DNA of 64,000 nucleotides, from NCBI GenBank assembly GCA_964276015.1, contig CAXYDO010000013.1, positions 25,305 to 89,304 of the forward strand, written 5' to 3'. This stretch comes from an uncultured Alphaproteobacteria bacterium (lineage in GTDB: Bacteria; Pseudomonadota; Alphaproteobacteria; UBA6615). Below are positions 1 through 11,358 of this stretch, piece by piece; within the stretch, counting starts at the first letter, position 1; each line of letters starts with the position of its first letter. The notes beneath the pieces were generated by a model. That model was not told the DNA's origin. It saw only the letters and a list, made by a program, of their open reading frames with translations, and ran no database searches. The position numbers and the translations under genes were made by a program.

Positions 1-847
1 CGGAGAACGGGTTGAGACTGCGGTAACCGGAATTTCCCGCCGTCGGCAGGCCGTCGGTCACCAGGTAGATGTCTGTTGGCTTGTGGGCTGCAACGGCCTT
101 CAGGCCTACGGCAAGATTGGTCGGCCCGGTGGGCACGATCTTGTTGAAATCCGCCACAAGCCGTCCCAGACCAGCCGCGTCTCCCCCCGACGTCCCGCCT
201 ACCTTGCCGAGGGTCGTCGCCGTGTCGTTAAACGTCACCACGCTGACCACTGTATCCTGCGGCAGGCGCGCGACGAGCCACTGCATAACGCGGCGGGTTC
301 GCTGCCATTTCGGACCGGCTACTTTTGTTGCTTCTCCCTGATTTTTACGGCGAATGATGTCGATCAGAGCCGTGTCCGTCATGGACGCGCTGCTGTCGAT
401 CAGAATTGCAATCCGCTTGCCTTCGACCCGCAGACCGATCAGGTAGTTTTCCTCACCGGCCTGCTGGCTCTGCACCAGATCTGTGTTGTCCTTAACCTCG
501 ATGGTCTCGATGGTTTTCTTGAGACTCTCCTCCTCGCTACGCCGGGCGGTGATTTCCTTCTGTTTCTTGTTGATCTCGTCCTGGACGCGGGAAATCTCGC
601 TTTCCAACGCCTCGACCTGGCCCGTGGTCGACGCTTTGGCTCGCAAGGCCGATACAACTTTTGCACTAAGGTCGTCTTCGGCTTTCTGCAAACGTTCGAG
701 ATCAGACGTCAGGCGTTCACGCTCGTCAGAAACATGGGCAACATCATGTTTGACCAGCATCAGGACAAGAATGATCGCGCCCAGCCCGCAGGACATGACG
801 TCCAGAAAGGCGAGGTTAAAACCCTCGGTTTTACGGCGCGCTCTCAG
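1..847 (-). CDS. VWA-domain membrane protein with N-terminal ExbD/MotB-like TM helix and coiled coil (3' end runs off window)
   Basis: Not in ORF track; hand translation of minus strand gives LRARRKTEGFNLAFLDVMSCGLGAIILVLMLVK, a coiled coil, then IAILIDSSASM (MIDAS DxSxS), GPTN and IYLVTDGLP. Frame is open to the window edge. Likely start is CTG overlapping the upstream TGA. Confidence 0.85.
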   Translation of the reverse strand, partial: MRARRKTEGFNLAFLDVMSCGLGAIILVLMLVKHDVAHVSDERERLTSDLERLQKAEDDLSAKVVSALRAKASTTGQVEALESEISRVQDEINKKQKEITARRSEEESLKKTIETIEVKDNTDLVQSQQAGEENYLIGLRVEGKRIAILIDSSASMTDTALIDIIRRKNQGEATKVAGPKWQRTRRVMQWLVARLPQDTVVSVVTFNDTATTLGKVGGTSGGDAAGLGRLVADFNKIVPTGPTNLAVGLKAVAAHKPTDIYLVTDGLPTAGNSGYRSLNPFS

Positions 848-1611
848 CTTCGACCCAATGTGCTGATGCGGTTCAGCAGGAAGGATTCACAGTACTCATG
901 GGTGTCTGTGACCATGGAATCCTGCAGGCGCTGAAGCTGGTGCAGCAAAAACATCAGAACGATGCTAATCAGCAGGGCTACGAATGTGGAATTGAACGCC
1001 ACTCCGAGGCTTTCCGTCATCCCGGCAATATCCCCGGCTAACGCCTGATCAGCCTGAGACAGGGCCTGGCCGATACCGCGCACCGTGCCGATGAACCCGA
1101 TCGCCGGAATTGCCCAGATCAGGTAACGGACCATGGAATTCTCGGCTTCCTGCTTCAGGGCCAGCGCCTCGACATTGGCGTCAATCGTCTCCGAGGTGTT
1201 CTGCACGTTGTCGGTGATCAGGAACCGCCGCAAGCTTGCCGACAAAGTCCGCACCAGCGGTGTGGTGCGGATACGGTCGGGCAGCTTCTCCAGTGTTTCC
1301 AGCATCGAGGCGAGGTCATCGTCGCCCTCCGCGCCACCCTCCAGCAGATCCACATTGAAAAGGTAGCGGTCCTTTAGAATAGCAAAACATTTGTCGAGGA
1401 TGAGGAACGTCCCCCACAGCATCATCATGATGCAGATTTCCTGTTCCCAGTCTTTAAGGATCACCGCCAGTTCGCGCGGCGCGCTTTGCCCGGCAGCCCG
1501 GGCCGCCGCGATAGCGTCAGCTGATTCGGGCCAGACATATCCGACGTAAAACAGATGGACGACTATGATCGAGACGACCAGAGCCAGGGTGTTCTTGATT
1601 GCGAATGCCAT
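844..1611 (-). CDS. MotA/TolQ/ExbB proton channel family protein
   Basis: AIPAIGFIGTVRGIG and LGVAFNSTFVALL motifs; several TM helices. Confidence 0.9.
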   Translation of the reverse strand: MAFAIKNTLALVVSIIVVHLFYVGYVWPESADAIAAARAAGQSAPRELAVILKDWEQEICIMMMLWGTFLILDKCFAILKDRYLFNVDLLEGGAEGDDDLASMLETLEKLPDRIRTTPLVRTLSASLRRFLITDNVQNTSETIDANVEALALKQEAENSMVRYLIWAIPAIGFIGTVRGIGQALSQADQALAGDIAGMTESLGVAFNSTFVALLISIVLMFLLHQLQRLQDSMVTDTHEYCESFLLNRISTLGRS

Positions 1612-1635
1612 ATCAGTAGCCGCTTTCCAGTCGCA

Positions 1636-1791
1636 TTAGATATCCACCGGGAACGACACCGGTGAGTTCAGGCTGATGCCCGATTGAGCGTAGGCGAAAC
1701 CGATCAGGCCACTGCCAAGGGCGAGGACCATGATCGCAATTCTCGCCTTTCGAAATCGCGCCTTAGCGCGCGTTGCTGCCTTGTGCTGCAT
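1636..1791 (-). CDS. small (51 aa) signal-peptide protein ending SPVSFPVDI
   Basis: C-terminal part of ORF 1636..2004 from the ATG at 1791; basic N-terminus, hydrophobic core and AYA|Q cleavage site; fills the operon gap. Confidence 0.6.
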   Translation of the reverse strand: MQHKAATRAKARFRKARIAIMVLALGSGLIGFAYAQSGISLNSPVSFPVDI

Positions 1792-3781
1792 GCAGATATC
1801 TCCCGATTCTGAATCCGATATCTTCTTTACCGTGGGTCGACCCTTCACGATAGGACGCCCGCAATTTCGTTCGCGTTCCTGATTTCCAACTCGAGCCTTT
1901 GACCACATGAGTGCCGCCAGAACGCGGCCCAAGGGGATCGGTTTCGACCTGGTCACGGCTGGGTGGCTGAAGCGAATAAAAATCATGAACCCATTCGCTG
2001 ACATTTCCGGTCAGATCGAACAGACCGGAACTCTCGGCCGGAAAGCTGCCGACCGGGGCGAGACCTGCGAAACCATCATTGTATTTCGGCACATAGAATT
2101 TGGTGATCCCATTGGCAGATTCATCGGCAATGTTGCCTGCTTTTTTCGGCACGGTCCCCGTATCACCCCAAGTAAAAATCGTCTGCTTCGGGCGACCGGC
2201 CAGACGCGCGAGCCATTCCCACTCGGCCTCGCTCAACAGGCGATAGCCATCGCTGGTGGTGCTCACGCCGACGAGCCTGCCATTGGAAATTCGGTAAAAC
2301 GGCGTCAACCGCTCCTGAACGCTCAGCCAATTGGTAAATTCCGCAGCCGCTACCCATGAAATCCCGGTAACCGGCGCTTTCGATGCACCCCGACGACCAC
2401 TTTTGAACTGCGCAAACTGACCATTGGTGACCTCGTGGCGGGCCGCATAAAACGGTTTTCGTAGGTTCACGCGCTTCTCGAACTCATTGGCCCGCTGCCC
2501 TTTCTGGCTGCGCGGCGCGCCCATGACGAAAGGCGTCGGTTTGAACAGGGACAGCCTGATACCGACAGAATTTGTGTAGGACCGCGGGGATTCCGCCAAA
2601 CGCGCGGCCGTTTCACCAATGAGTTCTTCTCGAATCACAAGAGTGCGCTGATCCGACGGCGTGATGATCTTGCGGATCGTGCGATAGGCCTTCTTGCGCA
2701 GTTCGATCTTGTGCGGCACGGCCAGCAATTGTAGCTCGGCGCTGCCGGTTCCAACCTTTTCGCCATCGACAAAAATCTCGGCCCCCGGGGTGGTGCGAAT
2801 ATCGACGAGGCCCAACTCCGGCTGCAGCTCTAACGCCAGGGACTTCTGTTCCAGGGCTTTCAGCCGAACGGTCTGGCTCTTGGATTTGTAGCCCTCCAGC
2901 ACATAAGTCACCGTGTGGTCTTGGTTGGCTGCCAGCTCCACGTCCCCGGAATTGGCCACTTTTCCGCCGTTCAGCAGAAGCTCCCCGCCCGCCGGGCTGA
3001 CCGACAGCTTCAGGGTCGCGGAGACCGGCTTGAGTATATAACGACGTTCGATCTGCGGCGCGATATTTGTAACTTTCACCTCATCGTCGATCGCTACCCG
3101 GTCCGGTGCGGTCACCTGGATCCGGTACACGCCACCTTCGACGGTCATCTCCAACAGTGTCGCTCCCACGCTGAGGTCGTTGAGAAACACTTCGGCCCCG
3201 CTGGGCGCCGAGGCAATTGTGAGCCGCCCGGCGACCGGTACGAGATCGAGACGAACTTCTGCGGTTTTGCCTCGCTCCAGTTCCAGTTCAAGCTCAACCG
3301 GCTGAAAATGGAGATGGTTCGCGGCCAGCTTGTAATTGCCCGCCGGGCGTTCCAGATCAATGCTCGTGGCGATGGCTACAGGTTGCCCGTCGAGGCTCCA
3401 GCGCGTTCCCGGCAAATTGCGTCCGGTGGCCGCGTCCAGGCGCCCTGGCAGGGGTTGCAGGCGGATCTCGACCGTACGACCGAGCTCCGCGGCCACAACC
3501 TCATGTACGACGTCGCGGAATCCTTCCGAGCGCACCGCCACAATCGGCGCTCCGCCGAGGCTGTAAACCGTCATGCCCACGGCGAGCCCCAAACCCTCGA
3601 CCAATTCAACTCGGCCGCCGTCCACCGCTTCGTCCGGGGTGACTTTCACCACCGTCCCGCTGGTTGAGAGGAGCACACCGATCACCGCCAACCCGATCAG
3701 GACGAGCCCGACAAGTCCCCCGACGTAAAATCGTGCCTGACGTCTGCGGGCTTCCCGCAGTCCTTCCTCAAACTGGCTCAT
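1763..3781 (-). CDS. membrane-anchored PEGA-repeat protein with C-terminal FGE-sulfatase (SUMF1/GldK-like) domain
   Basis: N-terminal TM; PEGA repeats (LTIASAPSGAEVFLND, IRTTPGAEIFVDG); FGE motifs FVMG, HEVTNGQF, YRLLSEAEWEW, GLFDLTGNVSEW, IGFRI. Confidence 0.9.
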   Translation of the reverse strand: MSQFEEGLREARRRQARFYVGGLVGLVLIGLAVIGVLLSTSGTVVKVTPDEAVDGGRVELVEGLGLAVGMTVYSLGGAPIVAVRSEGFRDVVHEVVAAELGRTVEIRLQPLPGRLDAATGRNLPGTRWSLDGQPVAIATSIDLERPAGNYKLAANHLHFQPVELELELERGKTAEVRLDLVPVAGRLTIASAPSGAEVFLNDLSVGATLLEMTVEGGVYRIQVTAPDRVAIDDEVKVTNIAPQIERRYILKPVSATLKLSVSPAGGELLLNGGKVANSGDVELAANQDHTVTYVLEGYKSKSQTVRLKALEQKSLALELQPELGLVDIRTTPGAEIFVDGEKVGTGSAELQLLAVPHKIELRKKAYRTIRKIITPSDQRTLVIREELIGETAARLAESPRSYTNSVGIRLSLFKPTPFVMGAPRSQKGQRANEFEKRVNLRKPFYAARHEVTNGQFAQFKSGRRGASKAPVTGISWVAAAEFTNWLSVQERLTPFYRISNGRLVGVSTTSDGYRLLSEAEWEWLARLAGRPKQTIFTWGDTGTVPKKAGNIADESANGITKFYVPKYNDGFAGLAPVGSFPAESSGLFDLTGNVSEWVHDFYSLQPPSRDQVETDPLGPRSGGTHVVKGSSWKSGTRTKLRASYREGSTHGKEDIGFRIGRYLHAAQGSNAR

Positions 3782-5258
3782 CAGGATAAATTTCCAATGT
3801 CAGAACTTCCGTACCCGGCGGGACATCCACGGTAATAAGCTTTGAGCGGAACCCCGCACGCGTGCCTTCAAAAATATAGCTGCCCGGCCGCAATTCGATA
3901 GTTCGATCGGTTGTCACTCCCACCTGTCCCACACCACGCACGGATATCCGGGTTACCCCGTCGGAAAGGATACGGATCGACACTTTCTGCGCATAAGACT
4001 CGACCAGATGCGTCACATCCTGCGCCATGCGAGCCAGCGATGGGCTTAAATCTGCAATACCCTGCGCCTTGGTGGCCTGTTCGGCGGCATCATTGGCAAC
4101 CGTCTCCGACGCCATCCGGTCCGGGTTGTCCAGTATATCAGTCAGCTGACGTTGCAGCCGGTTGATCTCGGTGGCGAGCTGATACCCCCCCGTCACGTTG
4201 GGGTCATCGGGAACAATGGCGCCCGCCCGGGCGTAAAAATCCTTTGCAGCAGACCAGTCATCTTCCTGCTCGGCTGCTTTGGCGCCGGCCACCATCTGCT
4301 CAAACTTCAGTGCCGTGGCCAGGGTCTCGATTTTTTCGGCCAGCAATCTGGTTTCGCGTCGGTCCGGGTAAACCGATCGGGCGGCATTCAAATCGGCCCG
4401 CGCCGCGCCCAGCTTACGGCCCAGCACATTTTCAAGCCCCGCATCGATCCGGGCCGTGAATTGCCGCTCGCGCAACTCGGTGCGCACCGCCGCCAGGCGT
4501 TCACCCTGGGCAGCGCGCGCCGGATCGAGGGCCAGCACCGCGGTGAGCTCGGCCGCTTCCGCTGCGAGATTGTTTTCGACCCGGGCGACGGCGGCTTTCT
4601 CCAGGGCGGTGAGAATGTCGGGTAACTTTGCGATCCCAGCGCCCAAATCCTGGGCGTCTTTGGAATCCGGCTGCAGCTGGAGAGCGCGCGCGCCGTGCAG
4701 GGAAGCCTGTTCGTAGTTATCATCCGCGAAGGCGGCGCGCGCCGCGCCAAGCGCCTCACCAAAAGCGGTATCCCGTGCAGCGAGTTCCTCGGAGGCAGAT
4801 TTAGACACCGCGGCCAGCTTGGCAGCCGCATCTGCATATTGGCCTTGGGCGAAGGCGTCGAGTGCGGCCTCTTTTTCCACCAGAAGCGCGCGCTGCGCCG
4901 GCTCGTTCCAGGCTGCAAATTCCGGCTTCGTGACATCCGGTTCAATATCGTTCTGAAACAACGTCAAATCGGCTTTGAACTGCTCCCGAATTTCATTCTC
5001 GGCGCGCCCCTGCGCGACGGCTGACACCGGCGTTTCCGAGACAACGTCCGGTGTATTCTCGAGGAGCGGCTGGACCGGGGTTCCATCCTCTCGCGCCGGC
5101 TCGGCCTGAATCGTTGAAGCCTCCGGGGTTGGCCAGAACACAAACACCGCAAGCAGAAACGCCACCACAAACCCCGTGACTCCGAAGAAGCCCAGGGCGA
5201 GCAGTAGGTTCCGGCGCCCGGACGCCCGGCTTTCCTGTTCGAGTTTCTCAAGCAGCAC
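3768..5258 (-). CDS. membrane-anchored TPR-like helical protein with C-terminal PEGA-like beta domain
   Basis: N-terminal TM; Ala-rich helical repeats (ARALQLQPDS, AVLALDPARA, AARSVYPDR, AGAIVPDD); C-terminal IELRPGSYIFEGTRAGFR. Confidence 0.75.
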   Translation of the reverse strand: MLLEKLEQESRASGRRNLLLALGFFGVTGFVVAFLLAVFVFWPTPEASTIQAEPAREDGTPVQPLLENTPDVVSETPVSAVAQGRAENEIREQFKADLTLFQNDIEPDVTKPEFAAWNEPAQRALLVEKEAALDAFAQGQYADAAAKLAAVSKSASEELAARDTAFGEALGAARAAFADDNYEQASLHGARALQLQPDSKDAQDLGAGIAKLPDILTALEKAAVARVENNLAAEAAELTAVLALDPARAAQGERLAAVRTELRERQFTARIDAGLENVLGRKLGAARADLNAARSVYPDRRETRLLAEKIETLATALKFEQMVAGAKAAEQEDDWSAAKDFYARAGAIVPDDPNVTGGYQLATEINRLQRQLTDILDNPDRMASETVANDAAEQATKAQGIADLSPSLARMAQDVTHLVESYAQKVSIRILSDGVTRISVRGVGQVGVTTDRTIELRPGSYIFEGTRAGFRSKLITVDVPPGTEVLTLEIYPDEPV

Positions 5259-5273
5259 GAACGACCGCCATAG

Positions 5274-6542
5274 CTAGAGTTTTACCTGCGGGGTTTTTTC
5301 CTGCTCGAATATTTTCTGCAGGAAGTCACGCCACTGGGCGAATTGTTCCTTGGCCGTTCCGGTCAGCTTGATCGTCTCTTTCTCGAACGCCACAACCCGG
5401 GGGGCGAGATCGATATCGATTGACTGACCGAGCTCCTCGAGCGCCTCACGATGGACCTTCGCCTCGGCGCTGGTCTGGAAACTATCCGTCAGCAATTTGG
5501 CGCCGACGATCCCGCCGGCAATGGCACCGGTGGTGGCAATGGTGCTACCCGCCGAGGAACTTGAATTCGCACCGGCTACGATCGCCAGAACGCTAAGCCC
5601 GATCGCCAGCACCCCCAACGCAGCCTGCCCGACTGCTTTTTCATTGACCTCGCCCCGTGCTTCCCGTTCAAGCAGGCTTTGTTCCTGCCAGATCAGGTAG
5701 CTGTCCTGCATATCTGCGCTGAACGCGGCATAGTGCTTCTGCATGCCATCAACGAAAAGCTGGTCGCGCACCCGAACCGCACGGGTTCGGCGCAGCATCG
5801 GGTCTTCCTCACTGGGGAAACTCACGAGTCCGATAGTCCGACCATTGGCGTCGAGATGTTCGGCAAATGCTTCCTGGATAAAACTCGATCCGAACCGCAG
5901 CTCGGTCACCTTCTGAAAGGTTGCCAGTTGCGCGGCGTCGTAGTCCTCGAGCTCCAGCGCGATACGATTGGCGGCCTCCTTGAAGACCGGGTCGTAGGGA
6001 TCCAGACCGTCGTTGCGGGCACTCTTGTGAAAACCCGGGTCGACCGTGTGCTCAAACGAGCGGGTGAACCAGTTATCACCGGTAATATCGGTCACGGTGA
6101 CCTGTATCTCGACATCCTCACCGTTAGATTCGATGATTTTTCCGCTCACGTAAAGATCACCGGTCGCGCTCTGATCCGGGGTCACGCGGACCGCCCCGAA
6201 GGCACCCGTGTCTTCCAGGGCCGCTTTCAGCTTGACCGCAAAACGGTTGGCCTCGGCGCGGCGCAACTCGGGCCAGACACCGTCTTCCTTGTAATCCTCG
6301 CCAGCCTTGGTCAGGCCCGGATCAAACACCGGAACGATCAGGTCGAGCTTCGGCCTGTCGGGGTCAACAACCGCCTCACCGGATTTATCGAACAGGGACG
6401 ACAATTGCGGTCCCACGCTCGAGCTACCCACCTGCGCGTTGCCGGCGCCGGTTCCCGCACCGCCCTGATTGGTCACACACCCTGTCAGGATGAAACAAAA
6501 ACAAACGGCGTAGACGCCCATCTTCTTCATTATCAGTCGCAT
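5274..6542 (-). CDS. uncharacterised lipoprotein with Gly/Ala-rich hydrophobic hairpin
   Basis: GGAGG SD; lipobox LTG|C; hydrophobic segment AALGVLAIGLSVLAIVAGA...ATTGAIAGGIVGAKLL. Confidence 0.8.
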   Translation of the reverse strand: MRLIMKKMGVYAVCFCFILTGCVTNQGGAGTGAGNAQVGSSSVGPQLSSLFDKSGEAVVDPDRPKLDLIVPVFDPGLTKAGEDYKEDGVWPELRRAEANRFAVKLKAALEDTGAFGAVRVTPDQSATGDLYVSGKIIESNGEDVEIQVTVTDITGDNWFTRSFEHTVDPGFHKSARNDGLDPYDPVFKEAANRIALELEDYDAAQLATFQKVTELRFGSSFIQEAFAEHLDANGRTIGLVSFPSEEDPMLRRTRAVRVRDQLFVDGMQKHYAAFSADMQDSYLIWQEQSLLEREARGEVNEKAVGQAALGVLAIGLSVLAIVAGANSSSSAGSTIATTGAIAGGIVGAKLLTDSFQTSAEAKVHREALEELGQSIDIDLAPRVVAFEKETIKLTGTAKEQFAQWRDFLQKIFEQEKTPQVKL

Positions 6543-6562: not shown

Positions 6563-7426
6563 CTACTTGACCTGCGGCAGGCCCTTATATTTGCGGTACT
6601 CGTTCCACAGTTTCTTCTTCAGTTCCGGGTCTTTCTCGTCGACGGCAGCCTGTCTGATCTGCGCTTCCAGAATACTATCATTGTCTGATGCCGGAATGTC
6701 TTCCGGGAGCTTGCCATTGCGCATAACCGGCGGTGTCGACCGTGTGGCTACCCGTTCGTCACCTTGAGCAGCCGCGCCCGCTTGTTGGGCGGGAGGCAGT
6801 TCCGGCTCATCTCCAGCGATATCACTCGAGGCCTGAGACCTGGAACCCGGGCGGGCTTCAAAGCTATCGCCGTCACCCTCCATGCCAGACGCCGAGGCCG
6901 ATCCGCTATCGGGGCCTTCGGGGCCCTCGCGACCGGCAGATGACGGCGAAACGCTCGGCAACCCGGCCAAGGGCGGCGTTATCGGTGGTTGTTCAGCCCC
7001 CGGGTCATCGCCGGAAATATCCCCGACAGCGGCCGTTGTTGATGCAGAACTGCCTTCGCCTTCACCCGCAGCATTTGAGTTGGCATCTGTCGCAGCGGAG
7101 CCTTCCGCGTCTGAGGCCGCATCTGTCTCAGCGCCGCCTTCCGTGCTCCCTACCTGACCTGCGTCCGGGTTCGCGTTCGCATCCTCCTCAGATTTTTCTT
7201 CCTCGACCTCCGGCTCGTCCCGGCATTCGTCGTAGCGATTGAGCGAACGCGTCAGCGCCTGATCCATGCGGGCAATCTTCTCTTCCAGGGTCAGACCGGC
7301 TTCATCTGCATAATCGATCTGTGACTCGCCGCATCTCTCAGACGTCGACTGCGCACCAGCCGGCGCGGCCAGCACCAAAGCAAAACCAATCGCGATCAAC
7401 GAACTTCGAGACAGCCAATCTGACAC
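6563..7426 (-). CDS. secreted acidic low-complexity protein with helical C-terminal motif
   Basis: GTG at 7426 after GGAG; signal peptide ending APAGA|Q; long D/E/G/A/S/P linker; C-terminal PEDIP...ILEAQIRQAA..EKDPELKKKLWNEYRKYKG. Confidence 0.75.
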   Translation of the reverse strand: MSDWLSRSSLIAIGFALVLAAPAGAQSTSERCGESQIDYADEAGLTLEEKIARMDQALTRSLNRYDECRDEPEVEEEKSEEDANANPDAGQVGSTEGGAETDAASDAEGSAATDANSNAAGEGEGSSASTTAAVGDISGDDPGAEQPPITPPLAGLPSVSPSSAGREGPEGPDSGSASASGMEGDGDSFEARPGSRSQASSDIAGDEPELPPAQQAGAAAQGDERVATRSTPPVMRNGKLPEDIPASDNDSILEAQIRQAAVDEKDPELKKKLWNEYRKYKGLPQVK

Positions 7427-7719
7427 CTGAATACTCCACAATTCCCACGCGCTGCAGATGCTAACGCGAACCAATATTTAGCTCCAATAATAGCGCAGAT
7501 CAGACTACGATATTTGGTGAAATTGTGGCTTTTTTCCGTCGCATAAAGCGGAACAACCCGCAGAAATCCGGCAAACCTGCCCTGGTTTGGGATGTAACAG
7601 GACCAGTTCTCGCCGCTTGGCATTCTGACCGGGGGCGTGTAAGAAGGCGCCTCCTCGCAAGGGGCTGCCCAGAACTGGTGTGTTTTCCCGGTGTTCGGTG
7701 CAAATTTATGCGGAAGGGG

Positions 7720-7935
7720 GTGATTCCCATCGTCCAAGTTGTTGTACGCGACAACAATGTCGATCAGGCGCTGAAAGCGCTGAAGAAGAAGATGCAACGC
7801 GAAGGCGTGTTTCGTGAGATGAAGCTACGGCGCTCATACGAGAAACCGTCGGAGAAGCGTGCGCGCGAAAAGGCTGAAGCCGTTCGCCGTCAGCGCAAAC
7901 TTGCCCGCAAACGCCAAGAGCGTGAGGGCTTCTAG
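7720..7935 (+). CDS. rpsU: 30S ribosomal protein S21 (start uncertain)
   Basis: [41 protein letters not shown]. Confidence 0.97.
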
Positions 7936-8026: not shown

Positions 8027-9430
8027 CTAGTGACCGCCTGCCTTGAGCGATTTGACGATATTCTCACACATCTTCTTGGCGTCATCGAACAGCATCATCG
8101 TATTGTCCTTGTAGAAGAGCGGGTTATCGATGCCCGCATAGCCGGATGCCAATGAGCGCTTGATGAACAACACTGTGCCCGAATCATCCAGGTTGAACAC
8201 CGGCATCCCGTAGATCGGACTGGATTTATCAGTCTTGGCCGAAGGGTTGGTGACATCGTTCGCACCAATCACGAAAGCAACGTCGGTCGATGCGAAATCT
8301 GAATTGATCTCGTCGAGTTCAAGCACATCGTCATAGGGCACATTGGCTTCGGCCAACAACACGTTCATGTGCCCCGGCATCCGGCCGGCGACCGGATGGA
8401 TCGCGTAACGAACCTTGACGCCCTTCTCTTCGAGCACGTTGACCATTTCGGCCAGCGCATGCTGGGCCTGCGCCACCGCCATGCCGTAACCCGGAATGAT
8501 GATGACCGAATTGGCCTGCTCCATGATGAAAGCGGCATCTTCGGCCGAACCCTGACGAACAGTACGATCACCAAGGTCTTCCATGCCGGGAGCAGCGGTT
8601 TCGCCACCGAACCCGCCCAGAATTACACTAAAGAACGAACGGTTCATCGCCCGACACATGATGTAGCTGAGGATCGCGCCCGAAGACCCGACCAGCGCGC
8701 CGACAATGATGAGCGCCGGGTTGGAAAGCGTGAAACCGATACCGGCCGCTGCCCAACCCGAATAGGAGTTCAGCATCGACACCACGACGGGCATGTCAGC
8801 ACCCCCGATCGGCAGGATCAGGGTCACGCCGATGATCAGGGACAAAATGACGATGGCCCAGAATGCGTTCGGCGATTCCGAGGCAGCCAGCCAGATAACG
8901 GCCAGAACCAGGCCAATACCCATAGCCAGGTTGAGCATGTGCTGGCCCTTGAAGACCAGCGGCTTGCCGGTCACCAAGCCTTGCAACTTACCGAAGGCGA
9001 TAATGGAACCGGTAAAGGTAATGGCACCGATCGCGGTTCCAATCGACAACTCGATCAGGCTGCCAGTGTGGATGTGACCCACGGTGCCAATACCATAGGC
9101 CTCAGGCGAGAAAAATGCGGCACCAGCCACCAGAACAGCGGCGAGGCCAACCAGCGAATGGAAGGCGGCCACAAGCTGTGGCAACGCGGTCATCGCGATC
9201 TTTAATGCGATGATGGCACCAATGGCACCGCCAATCGCAATGCCAAGAACAATCGCACTGAACGAGGTCACCCCCGGCAACGCAACCGTCGTCAGGATGG
9301 CGATCACCATGCCGGAGATACCGTAGATATTTCCCATCCGGGCGGTCTTGGGCGAACTCAGCCCCCGCAACGCCATGATGAAACAGACGCCGGAGACCAG
9401 ATAGGCAAATGCAGTCAATGAAGCAGACAT
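8027..9430 (-). CDS. pntB: NAD(P) transhydrogenase subunit beta
   Basis: LPQLVAAFHSLVGLAA, GGADMPVVVSMLNSYSG, IHPVAGRMPGHMNVLLAEA. Confidence 0.97.
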   Translation of the reverse strand: MSASLTAFAYLVSGVCFIMALRGLSSPKTARMGNIYGISGMVIAILTTVALPGVTSFSAIVLGIAIGGAIGAIIALKIAMTALPQLVAAFHSLVGLAAVLVAGAAFFSPEAYGIGTVGHIHTGSLIELSIGTAIGAITFTGSIIAFGKLQGLVTGKPLVFKGQHMLNLAMGIGLVLAVIWLAASESPNAFWAIVILSLIIGVTLILPIGGADMPVVVSMLNSYSGWAAAGIGFTLSNPALIIVGALVGSSGAILSYIMCRAMNRSFFSVILGGFGGETAAPGMEDLGDRTVRQGSAEDAAFIMEQANSVIIIPGYGMAVAQAQHALAEMVNVLEEKGVKVRYAIHPVAGRMPGHMNVLLAEANVPYDDVLELDEINSDFASTDVAFVIGANDVTNPSAKTDKSSPIYGMPVFNLDDSGTVLFIKRSLASGYAGIDNPLFYKDNTMMLFDDAKKMCENIVKSLKAGGH

Positions 9431-9440
9431 ATCGAGCGCC

Positions 9441-9848
9441 CTATTTCTTCGCGCGGTACATGGCGAGCATGCGCTGCGTCACGATAAATCCGCCAAAAAT
9501 GTTCACCGACGCCAGGATGACGGCAATAAATCCGAAAATCTTCGAGATGTTCCAGTCATCCGGGCCCGCCGCGATCAGCGCCCCAACGATGATCACCGAG
9601 GAAATCGCGTTGGTCACCGCCATCAGGGGTGAATGCAGCGCCGGCGTGACGCTCCACACGACGTAGTAACCGATGAAACAGGCCAGCACGAAAACCGTGA
9701 ACAGGAAAATGAAGGGATCGCCCGCACCGGAAGTTTGCGCGAGTGCCAGCTGGGTTGCCTCCTGGGCCAGGCCCGCGGCACGTTCGGCAACCGCACTGAC
9801 GTCATTCGCCAGGCTCGCCGCATTGTCTGCAAGGGTCGATGGATCCAT
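9441..9848 (-). CDS. pntAb: NAD(P) transhydrogenase subunit alpha part 2
   Basis: [31 protein letters not shown]. Confidence 0.95.
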
Positions 9849-9851
9849 CAG

Positions 9852-11088
9852 TTAGGCCCCCTTCTCGGTTGAATCGGTTTCGGATGCGTCTTCGTCGTCA
9901 TCCGCTTGGGCAACCGGCTCGGGCGCCTTCGCCTCTTCGGGCAACAATGCCGGGTGAACGATCTTGCTGTCCCGTGTCAGGCAGGTGCCAATGATGATCT
10001 CGTCATCCCAGTCGATGCTAATTTTCTTTTCATCAACGTCGACGAGAAGTTCGACGAAGTTCATCAGGTTGCGCGAATAAAGCGCGGACGCATCGGTCGC
10101 CAGCCGCGAAGGCAGGTTGAATTCACCAATGATTTTTACGCCGTTTTCGGTTGTGGCAATCTCGCCAGGCTTGGTCTGGGTGACATTGCCACCCTGCTCA
10201 GCGGCGATATCGACGATCACCGAGCCTGATTTCATCGACGCGATCATGTCGTCATTCACCAGGGTTGGCGCGGCCCGTCCCGGGATTAGCGCTGTGGTGA
10301 TGACGATGTCCTGATCCTTGATGTGGTCCGCGATGAGTTCGGCCTGACGACGCTTGTAGTCGTCGGACATCTCCTTGGCGTATCCACCGGCGGTCTGGCC
10401 GGTATCCCCTTCATCGGGCTCGACCATGACGAACGTGGCCCCCAGGCTTTCGACTTCCTGTTTCGAGGCCATGCGTACATCGGTCGCCGACACGATGGCA
10501 CCCAGGCGACGCGCGGTGGCGATCGCCTGCAATCCGGCAACCCCCCGCGCCCATGACGAACACTTTGGCCGGATTGATCCGACCCGCTGCGGTCATCAGC
10601 ATCGGCATCGCCTTGGTGTAGTTGGCTGCACCGTCGATCACTGCCTTATACCCGGACAGGTTCGACTGCGAGCTCAACACATCCATAGACTGCGCCCGGC
10701 TGATCCGCGGCACCATCTCCATCGCAAAAGCAACGACATTGTGCGCCGCATAAGCTTCCACGCCGACCGGGTCGCCGTAGGGGTTGTGCAGGGCGATCAA
10801 AAAAGCGCTGGCCGGAATATCCGACAGGCCATCCTCGCCACCGTCATCCATAGTGCGCGGACGCTGGACCTTGAGAACAATATCGGCATCGGCAAACGTC
10901 TCAGCGCGGGTCGCCGCAACTGTTGCGCCGGCAGCCTGATAGGCCGCGTCGGAGAGCGAGGCAGCTTCGCCCGCTCCGCTTTCCACGGTCACATCAAAAC
11001 CCCATTGCAGATAGCGTTTGATCGTATCTGGTGTCGCCGCGACGCGCCGCTCGTGCGGGCGCCGTTCTTTGGCAATCGCGATCTTCAT
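9852..11088 (-). CDS. pntAa: NAD(P) transhydrogenase subunit alpha part 1, split by a +1 frameshift at a G6 run (10541-10546)
   Basis: MKIAIAKE...ERRVAATP, RISRAQSMDVLSSQ; removing one G restores VMGAGVAGLQAIATARRLGA. Confidence 0.92.
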
Positions 11089-11358
11089 AACGTTAAGGAA
11101 CCTCGGTTCGGTCGAACTCGGTGGGACCCGGTCTGGAACACGAAAACGACCGGTCGCGCTGACGCGCGCGCTGGGGAATATGCCGTGACGGTCCCGACAG
11201 GGCAACCCTGCACGACGTCACATCCACATGGACATTTAAGAGCGTTGATGTGAATGCGACAAGCGCATGAACCCAGCGTCCGCCGACGACGGAATTCGGG
11301 TATACCAAGGCTTATATAACGCGCTACGAACGTAGCCAACCCAAACCGCCAGGTACGC

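Follow-up and report, generated by a model that had tools for sequence, protein, structure and literature searches.

Rotary 5:2 ion motors power flagella, TonB-dependent uptake, the Tol-Pal system, gliding and type IX secretion (T9SS), and Zorya defence. In this study, we analyzed a locus that likely encodes a further motor of this kind, located at one end of a 64,000-nucleotide (nt) stretch of DNA from an uncultured Alphaproteobacteria bacterium of the UBA6615 lineage (assembly GCA_964276015.1, contig CAXYDO010000013.1, positions 25,305 to 89,304 of the forward strand; G000:C13:25305-89304 in our coordinates). This whole stretch is referred to below as the window, and all genes of interest lie on its minus strand. 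They encode a channel subunit of the MotA/ExbB/TolQ family (A) and a protein (B1) in which a basic tail and a transmembrane (TM) helix with a conserved Asp are joined through a long helix to a domain of the von Willebrand factor A (vWA) type with a metal-ion-dependent adhesion site (MIDAS). A paralogue of B1, designated B2, is encoded next to it just outside the window.

The closest described systems share individual parts of this design. Similar to the ExbB-ExbD pair and to TolQ-TolR, this locus encodes a channel subunit of the same Pfam family, and, as in ExbD and TolR, the B subunits are bitopic, and each combines a short, basic tail in the cytoplasm with an Asp close to the cytoplasmic end of its single helix (N.xxFxDVM compared with NVAPFVDVM). 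In contrast to those systems, there are two different B subunits, which carry a coiled-coil stalk with a vWA head. Unlike in the Tol and Ton systems, no TonB/TolA-like third subunit is present here, and on reading the sequences, neither a His nor an SHLS-type motif was found in the helix of B1 or B2. The combination of a channel ring with an Asp-helix subunit whose periplasmic end holds something resembles MotA-MotB and PomA-PomB; in contrast, the OmpA-like domain, a large cytoplasmic torque interface in A, and a flagellar context are all absent. A motor with an inner dimer bearing a long periplasmic stalk, encoded together with a protein of the FGE-sulfatase fold, is also a feature of GldL-GldM. 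However, the charged residue of the GldM helix is not known to be an ExbD-type Asp, the FGE-fold protein of this locus is TM-anchored and carries PEGA repeats, unlike GldK, and the host lineages differ. Finally, the AglR-AglQ-AglS motor and Glt machinery of Myxococcus use two different TolR-like subunits, and the vWA adhesin CglB is the final effector. Compared by description, CglB is a separate outer-membrane lipoprotein, whereas the vWA domains here are fused to the axle subunits.

An arrangement of this type has been predicted in silico. In the parts of its text that were available, PMC12204202 (Mol Biol Evol 2025;42:msaf138), which also cites CglB, predicted 'TPH-vWA' partners of TolQ-like pentamers, starting from a seed in Idiomarina loihiensis. 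According to the same parts, genes for TM-tethered vWA proteins are tightly linked to a tolQ-like gene with no tolR, exbD, or motB nearby, they occur mostly in heterologous pairs and mainly in Proteobacteria and Verrucomicrobia, and their helix Asp is conserved. Moreover, in the AlphaFold3 models described there, the two Asp residues lie within the ring of Thr residues that the TolQ-like pentamer forms. The locus analyzed here likewise has a vWA gene beside a tolQ-like gene without tolR, exbD, or motB nearby, and a heterologous pair with the helix Asp and no SHLS or His. By every feature that the available text of PMC12204202 names, A-B1-B2 is another member of this class, and the motor prediction itself is already published. 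The five other genes of the operon, including one for a short peptide ending in FPVDI, and the probable CTG start codon described below are not mentioned in that portion of the text. A full-text literature search found the term 'transpore helix' in PMC12204202 only.

Channel subunit A and the vWA-bearing subunits

The gene for A (844..1611, minus strand) encodes 255 amino acids (aa) and matches Pfam PF01618 with an E value of 4.4e-13; the match scores 49.5 bits, where the cut-off is 22.9, and 50.9 bits when the whole genome is scanned. The genome contains only two PF01618 genes, A and TolQ on contig 9, and their products share 25% identity (E 1e-5). In the alignment of the two, IGFIGTVRGIG of A lies over FIGLFGTVWGI and AFNSTF over ALFTTA. 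Thr176 in the first block and Ser208/Thr209 in the second are aligned with the GTVWGI and FTT of TolQ, and both motif blocks are at least 97% conserved among 81 A orthologues. Such channel Thr residues are the functional ones according to the available text of PMC12204202. The single PF02472 (ExbD/TolR) gene of the genome is located directly after TolQ on contig 9, apart from A, and A is thus left without a classical partner. Furthermore, the cytoplasmic part of A is small, with approximately 70 residues between the second and third hydrophobic segments, which argues for an output on the periplasmic side.

A gene directly behind the channel gene and overlapping it by 4 nt had been proposed in the original prediction, and the minus-strand translation of positions 2-940 contains it. 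This translation reads KLRARRKTEGFNLAFLDVMSCGLGAIILVLMLV, followed by a long helical stretch and then RIAILIDSSASM, GPTNL, and LVTDGLPT; in a longer reading, HIGSKLRARRKTEGFNLAFLDVMSCGLGAIILVLMLVKH precedes a heptad-like stretch, RIAILIDSSASM, VPTGPTNL, and YLVTDGLPT. Within the window, B1 occupies 1..847 of the minus strand (282 codons). The gene extends 215 nt past window base 1, and the whole product comprises 353 aa (L002:11786-12847, minus strand). The AlphaFold2 model of B1, built on an alignment of 133 rows, has a mean predicted local distance difference test (pLDDT) score of 88.5. In this model, a TM helix at residues 14-31 is followed by one continuous helix of 74 residues at 42-115, which would measure approximately 11 nm when straight. 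Residues 116-144 form a linker of low confidence, and the vWA domain occupies 145-353, where most pLDDT values exceed 95. The long helix had been anticipated as a coiled coil of roughly 90 aa and is shorter than that in the model, while the anticipated MIDAS elements (DSSAS, T, DG) are present in the translation and the vWA fold in the model. A Foldseek comparison with the PDB gave 218 chains at E<=1e-3, and the best of those listed are vWA domains. They include CLCA1 (E 5.9e-7), the aerotolerance (Bat-type) protein 4jdu of Bacteroides, BatB (3ibs), ITIH, the calcium-channel alpha2delta subunit, and CMG2/TEM8. A sequence search of the PDB with the B1 profile returned weak vWA matches only (8s05, ITIH4), together with coiled-coil noise. 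No OmpA-family match was found with Pfam in B1 or B2, nor was an ExbD-type periplasmic domain found in either; the coiled coil and vWA domain occupy its place.

A search of 1.84 billion representatives detected 850 relatives of B1 at E<=1e-3, a number that falls to 401 when the threshold is E<=1e-10 and to 182 when it is E<=1e-30. Residue conservation was assessed on B1 and its 150 best 50%-identity representatives, a set of 151 from which 13 sequences outside 320-390 aa were removed. This left 138 sequences, among them the query, to which the representatives are 29-49% identical. Asp16 is an Asp in all 130 sequences that have a residue at this position, and the other eight are N-terminally cut. 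Of the neighboring helix residues, Cys20 and Gly21 are each kept in 135 of the 138 sequences and Gly23 in 137. Similarly, the MIDAS is kept in 128-138 of the 138, with D151 in 137, S153 in 138, S155 in 137, T243 in 128 (and Ser in a further 9), and D265 in 138. The 133-row alignment contains 11 invariant columns, including D16, G23, S153, M156, K180, and D265. The conservation expected of the Asp and the MIDAS in the original prediction is therefore found. In addition, a Cys284/Cys298 pair occurs in 79-80 of the 138 representatives, which fits a periplasmic location of the head. In both B1 and B2, no other part is as well conserved as the Asp helix, and no conserved signal-peptidase site follows it; the FPVDI peptide of the same operon displays the opposite pattern. 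For these reasons, cleavage of the N-terminal helix of B1 as a signal peptide, which had been named as an alternative, is unlikely.

The gene for B2 (318 aa) lies outside the window on the minus strand, at L002:10833-11789, equivalent to G000:C13:24137-25093, and its ATG overlaps the stop codon of B1 as ATGA. The B2 sequence comprises MKKKSREFEIFSLSFLDVISCGFGAV, a coiled coil, and a vWA domain with VVFIVDTSGSM. B1 and B2 share 24% identity by BLASTP (E 6e-12), and their family profiles match (probability 99.8%, E 3.7e-28) over 245 columns that run from the helix through the stalk into the vWA domain. Among 59 B2 orthologues, Asp17, the ISCGFGA block, DTSGSM, and Asp253 do not vary, nor does Ser226, which stands where the MIDAS Thr would be. 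With this second vWA paralogue next to B1, the stator pair of the original prediction becomes a trio.

In a scan covering a single genome for each species, at least 591 stretches encode a relative, and the figures for loci given here refer to the best 80 of these, which belong to Alpha-, Beta-, and Gammaproteobacteria, Desulfobacterota, and Binatia. The loci were scored by searching their stop-to-stop frames with the window proteins. Matches to A, B1, and B2 were each found in 80 of the 80 loci. The gene order is constant and always A-B1-B2, and most of the misses for the other operon genes fall at contig ends.

Proposed motor and alternative explanations

We consider it likely that A, B1, and B2 constitute a proton-driven motor of the MotAB/ExbBD/TolQR (5:2) kind. 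The domain anatomy, the conservation of the key residues, the absence of a further B-type partner, the strict co-occurrence of the three genes, and their overlaps were observed directly. On this basis, we infer a 5:1:1 assembly with proton coupling and a B1/B2 heterodimer whose heads would bind a partner. A ring of A subunits would surround the N-terminal helices of B1 and B2, in which Asp16 of B1 and Asp17 of B2, opposite the conserved Thr176 and Ser208/Thr209 of A, would bind protons and let them go again. Ring and axle would thereby move relative to each other, and the coiled-coil stalk of approximately 11 nm would transmit this motion into the periplasm. At the tip of this stalk, the two vWA heads would use their metal sites to keep hold of a partner close to the peptidoglycan or outer membrane. 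The work would then be done in the envelope, most likely on the lipoprotein, the PEGA/FGE protein, the TPR-like protein, the acidic protein, and the FPVDI peptide encoded in the same operon.

Several observations weigh against this proposal. The Pfam ExbD model (PF02472) did not match full-length B1 or B2, nor did it match their N-terminal 45 residues even at E<=10; the same model scores the TolR of the genome at 93 bits. At the motif level, the helix of B1 can be set beside that of the genome's TolR (EGFNLAFLDVM and EINVAPFVDVM), and hhalign of B1 with this TolR does align the N..FxDVM columns, but with a probability of 1.8% and an E value of 0.027, which is not significant. Homology of the B1 helix to ExbD/TolR was dropped on these two grounds. 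Of the likeness to ExbD/TolR in the original prediction, the Asp motif is retained and a statistically detectable similarity is not. Since the homology is not significant, B1 and B2 are described here as proteins that may act like ExbD, TolR, or MotB yet stand outside those families. Moreover, the vWA assignment by Pfam VWA_2 falls short, with 26.8 bits for B1, 0.2 under the cut-off of 27, and B2 far under it. The proposed assembly of A with the B subunits draws on models that were published for other members and on evidence from genomes, and two kinds of homodimer would be the alternative to the presumed B1/B2 heterodimer. The CTG start of B1 discussed below is likewise drawn from comparison between loci. 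The available text of PMC12204202 states that no phenotypes are known for these motors.

Three other explanations were weighed against the motor with a periplasmic output. In one, the mechanics are reversed as in MotAB, such that the vWA heads form a static anchor on the wall or outer membrane, and the A ring turns around B1/B2 and acts on membrane partners such as the TM helices of the TPR-like and PEGA/FGE proteins. vWA/MIDAS domains serve for holding, as MotB's peptidoglycan-binding domain does, the TPR-like and PEGA/FGE proteins each start with a TM segment, and the phrase 'output or anchor' in the original prediction is compatible with this arrangement. However, A displays no rotor-engaging domain and has only the stretch of about 70 cytoplasmic residues noted above, and we regard the reversed mechanics as unlikely. 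We attach still less weight to the idea that B1 and B2 are tethered vWA proteins of the BatA/BatB type, in which the helix would be merely an anchor and the Asp structural, leaving A to act alone or with other partners. This would be very hard to reconcile with the near invariance of D16, C20, G21, G23, and A24 in sequences whose identity to the query is otherwise 28-54%, or with the co-occurrence with A in 80 of 80 loci in overlapping frames. Furthermore, the operon contains no MoxR or DUF58 genes, and A has no other B-type partner. The points in favor of a Bat-like anchor are the presence of 4jdu (BatA-like) and 3ibs (BatB) among the Foldseek matches and the lack of a significant ExbD match of the helix.

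A Zorya-like, motor-based anti-phage defence is highly improbable. Its long ZorA tail is missing from A, which has 255 aa, the operon has no nuclease or helicase effector, and PADLOC reported no Zor effector and no defence system. Additionally, all eight operon products carry envelope-type signals, and the flanks of the loci hold no conserved defence genes. PADLOC did report a weak ZorA match of A (E 6.8e-4, 16.7 bits, 83 of 505 positions), but its other matches among the six proteins scanned are coiled-coil noise. The patchy distribution of the locus, with B1 detected at E<=1e-20 in 18 of 400 other sampled genomes of the phylum, would also suit a defence system.

A probable CTG start codon for B1

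No ATG, GTG, or TTG is present in the B1 frame between the upstream in-frame stop and Met18, and Met18 lies inside the membrane helix, beyond the Asp. A CTG at 845-847 occupies the position of the start codon in the homologues, and full-length homologues of other lineages comprise 353 aa with the N-terminus MRxRRKxEGFNLAFLDIMSCGLGA. The 4-nt overlap of the A and B1 genes is CTGA. Of the gene start proposed in the original prediction, the 4-nt overlap holds, and a CTG stands where an ATG, GTG, or TTG would be expected.

The codon at this position was surveyed in 81 loci, namely, the 80 related loci and the window's own genome. It is CTG in 30, GTG in 21, ATG in 11, and TTG in 10, while the remaining 9 have a canonical start one codon upstream. 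In 24 of the 30 CTG loci, the frame upstream of the helix contains no canonical start, and in 28 of the 30, the CTG overlaps the stop codon of A as CTGA. In three of them (L004, L015, and L071), an in-frame stop lies 1-2 codons ahead of the CTG. The CTG loci belong to Alphaproteobacteria, Binatia, and two Gammaproteobacteria. The 17 codons behind the CTG do not overlap another gene, and they are conserved as protein. An ATT five codons upstream of the CTG was considered as the start of B1 and rejected, as it is not conserved in the other CTG loci. Collectively, this comparison suggests that B1 most likely starts at the CTG, probably by re-initiation coupled to the termination of A.

As the original prediction had noted, the open reading frame (ORF) track of the window misses B1, because the window edge cuts the gene and the start codon is non-canonical. 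A CTG start would also explain the short forms of B1 in databases. Nineteen of the 20 best database matches to B1 have 333-337 aa at 95% query coverage. The three short forms that were examined (P0004, P0015, and P0027, the first two among these 19) begin at an internal Met, and as annotated, they lack the basic tail, half of the helix, and the conserved Asp. Gene callers can thus trim the Asp helix off B1 homologues, which should be kept in mind when such proteins are collected. The probable recurrent CTG start, in 30 of 81 loci, is an addition of the present analysis. The series of ATG, GTG, TTG, and CTG at one conserved site would be useful for studies of CTG initiation and translational coupling.

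The eight-gene operon and its distribution

A, B1, and B2 are the last genes of an envelope operon of eight genes in the order acidic protein, lipoprotein, TPR-like protein, PEGA/FGE protein, FPVDI peptide, A, B1, and B2. Scans for promoters and terminators at the ends of the operon and inside A-B1-B2 gave no signal above the shuffled expectation.

The FPVDI peptide is encoded by a micro-ORF of 51 codons (1636..1791, minus strand). At its 5' end, this ORF overlaps the PEGA/FGE gene's 3' end, and its stop codon lies 24 nt before the start of A. The product has a signal-peptide-like N-terminus with an AxA site, after which the tail reads ISLNSPVSFPVDI-COOH. The tail consensus, (I/F)SLNSPxSFP(V/I)DI-COOH, is nearly invariant. 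In 58 sequences, L20, F26, P27, D29, and I30 are invariant, the AxA site is conserved, and the hydrophobic core is variable. The mature peptide would have approximately 16-17 residues. Its S-F-P-V-D stretch loosely resembles the C/S-x-P-x-R motif bound by FGE enzymes. A complex prediction of the last 30 residues with the FGE domain and with the B1 and B2 heads, run without controls, gave 0.01 against a mark of 0.32, which counts neither for binding nor against it. A pattern search found the tail in 75 of 80 loci; in three of the other five, the sequence does not extend upstream of A.

The PEGA/FGE gene (1763..3781, minus strand) encodes a TM-anchored protein of 672 aa with PEGA/beta-sandwich repeats and a C-terminal domain of the FGE-sulfatase fold. 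Its Pfam matches are PF03781 (116.2 bits) and PEGA (80.2 bits in two stretches). The best NCBIfam models are GldK (TIGR03525 GldK/PorK, 71.5 bits against a cut-off of 350) and GldJ, both far below their cut-offs, and as judged from these scores, the protein shares the fold of GldK/GldJ only, with no orthology. FGE enzymes need a Cys pair. No Cys occurs in the invariant or nearly invariant columns of 48 sequences of the FGE domain (1766-2569), and the domain is therefore probably a binding module rather than an enzyme. The vWA-MoxR conflict systems of Kaur et al. 2020 (PMC7159879), which also involve FGS and PEGA domains, were considered and rejected as a different system; ExbB/TolQ is not mentioned in the available part of that text.

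The TPR-like gene (3768..5258, minus strand) encodes a TM-anchored helical-repeat protein of 496 aa with a conserved C-terminal beta domain. It matches no Pfam family over the cut-off, and its nearest Atlas clusters (score 0.96-0.98) carry TPR_2, TPR_14, and TPR_1. The product of the lipoprotein gene (5274..6542, minus strand) has about 418-422 aa, and a hydrophobic segment rich in Gly and Ala lies near residues 300-345. The lipobox Cys is present in 57 of 57 picked orthologues, which is not an independent count given that the picker required a lipobox, and Cys18 is invariant in 53 sequences. The AlphaFold2 model of the lipoprotein has a mean pLDDT of 72.8, with values below 50 at 302-370. Its N-terminal domain resembles lipoproteins that form rings or belong to the outer membrane, with matches to FlgT, the LPHT ring, DUF330, PelC, CsgG, and LptE (Foldseek E 3.8e-5 to 1e-2, with low TM-scores), and is followed by long helices and the Gly/Ala-rich hydrophobic segment. 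The Atlas look-up gave no named relatives for the lipoprotein, and a TraT match of 0.75 was too weak and was not used.

The first gene of the operon (6563..7474, minus strand; start uncertain) encodes an acidic, low-complexity secreted protein of about 300 aa with no Pfam match. In 63 sequences, its C-terminus is conserved as LPxDIPxxDNDxxxAxQIRxAAxxExDP....LWxEYRxYKG, and the only other conserved part is a short Cys-containing N-terminal block. That this protein supplies acidic ligands for the MIDAS heads is speculation. Upstream of the operon, a small basic ORF lies on the plus strand (7525-7935), followed by minus-strand ORFs at 8027-9430, 9441-9848, and 9852-11205. By eye, these ORFs resemble the gene for ribosomal protein S21 and a split pyridine-nucleotide transhydrogenase.

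Among the 80 loci, the PEGA/FGE protein was matched in 77, the TPR-like protein in 69, the lipoprotein in 64, and the acidic protein in 62. No ninth conserved gene was found in the flanks, where the clusters reflect only the gene order that close relatives share. In the sample of 400 other genomes of the phylum together with the window's own genome, 8 of 212 genera carry B1. Cultured carriers among the related loci include Methylophaga sulfidovorans DSM 11578, Denitrobaculum tricleocarpae R148, Magnetovibrio blakemorei MV-1, and Aestuariispira insulae. DNA nearly identical to window positions 1-4000 occurs in marine and seawater metagenomes of several studies. Moreover, contigs of four metatranscriptome runs align to the stretch at 90-99% identity. 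One of these (X16 record 9, 321-1027) spans the A/B1 junction, with no listed difference at 845-847, and others (X16 record 11 and X17 record 20) join the micro-ORF to the beginning of A or to the PEGA/FGE gene's end. These junction-spanning contigs are a weak sign of co-transcription, as DNA can occur in such libraries, and uncovered parts of the stretch carry no weight.

A more far-reaching and doubtful proposal is that the eight genes together encode one envelope-spanning proton machine of a new type. Here, the B1/B2 axle would turn or pull within the A ring, with the two MIDAS heads acting on a lipoprotein ring of the outer membrane (FlgT/PelC/CsgG-like fold) and a PEGA/FGE scaffold. The FPVDI peptide of approximately 16 residues, exported by Sec, would serve as a ligand or regulator, and re-initiation at CTG would set the ratio of axle to ring. 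If this were true, Proteobacteria would possess an equivalent of the GldLM/GldK motor of gliding and secretion, but one whose output is new.

This copy of the locus adds little to the motor prediction itself; the handles gained from it and its relatives include a fixed parts list of eight genes and a set of cultured carriers. If the motor formed by A, B1, and B2 is real, a class of motors with integrin-like, metal-binding heads on the axle would widen the known roles of 5:2 motors in the envelope.

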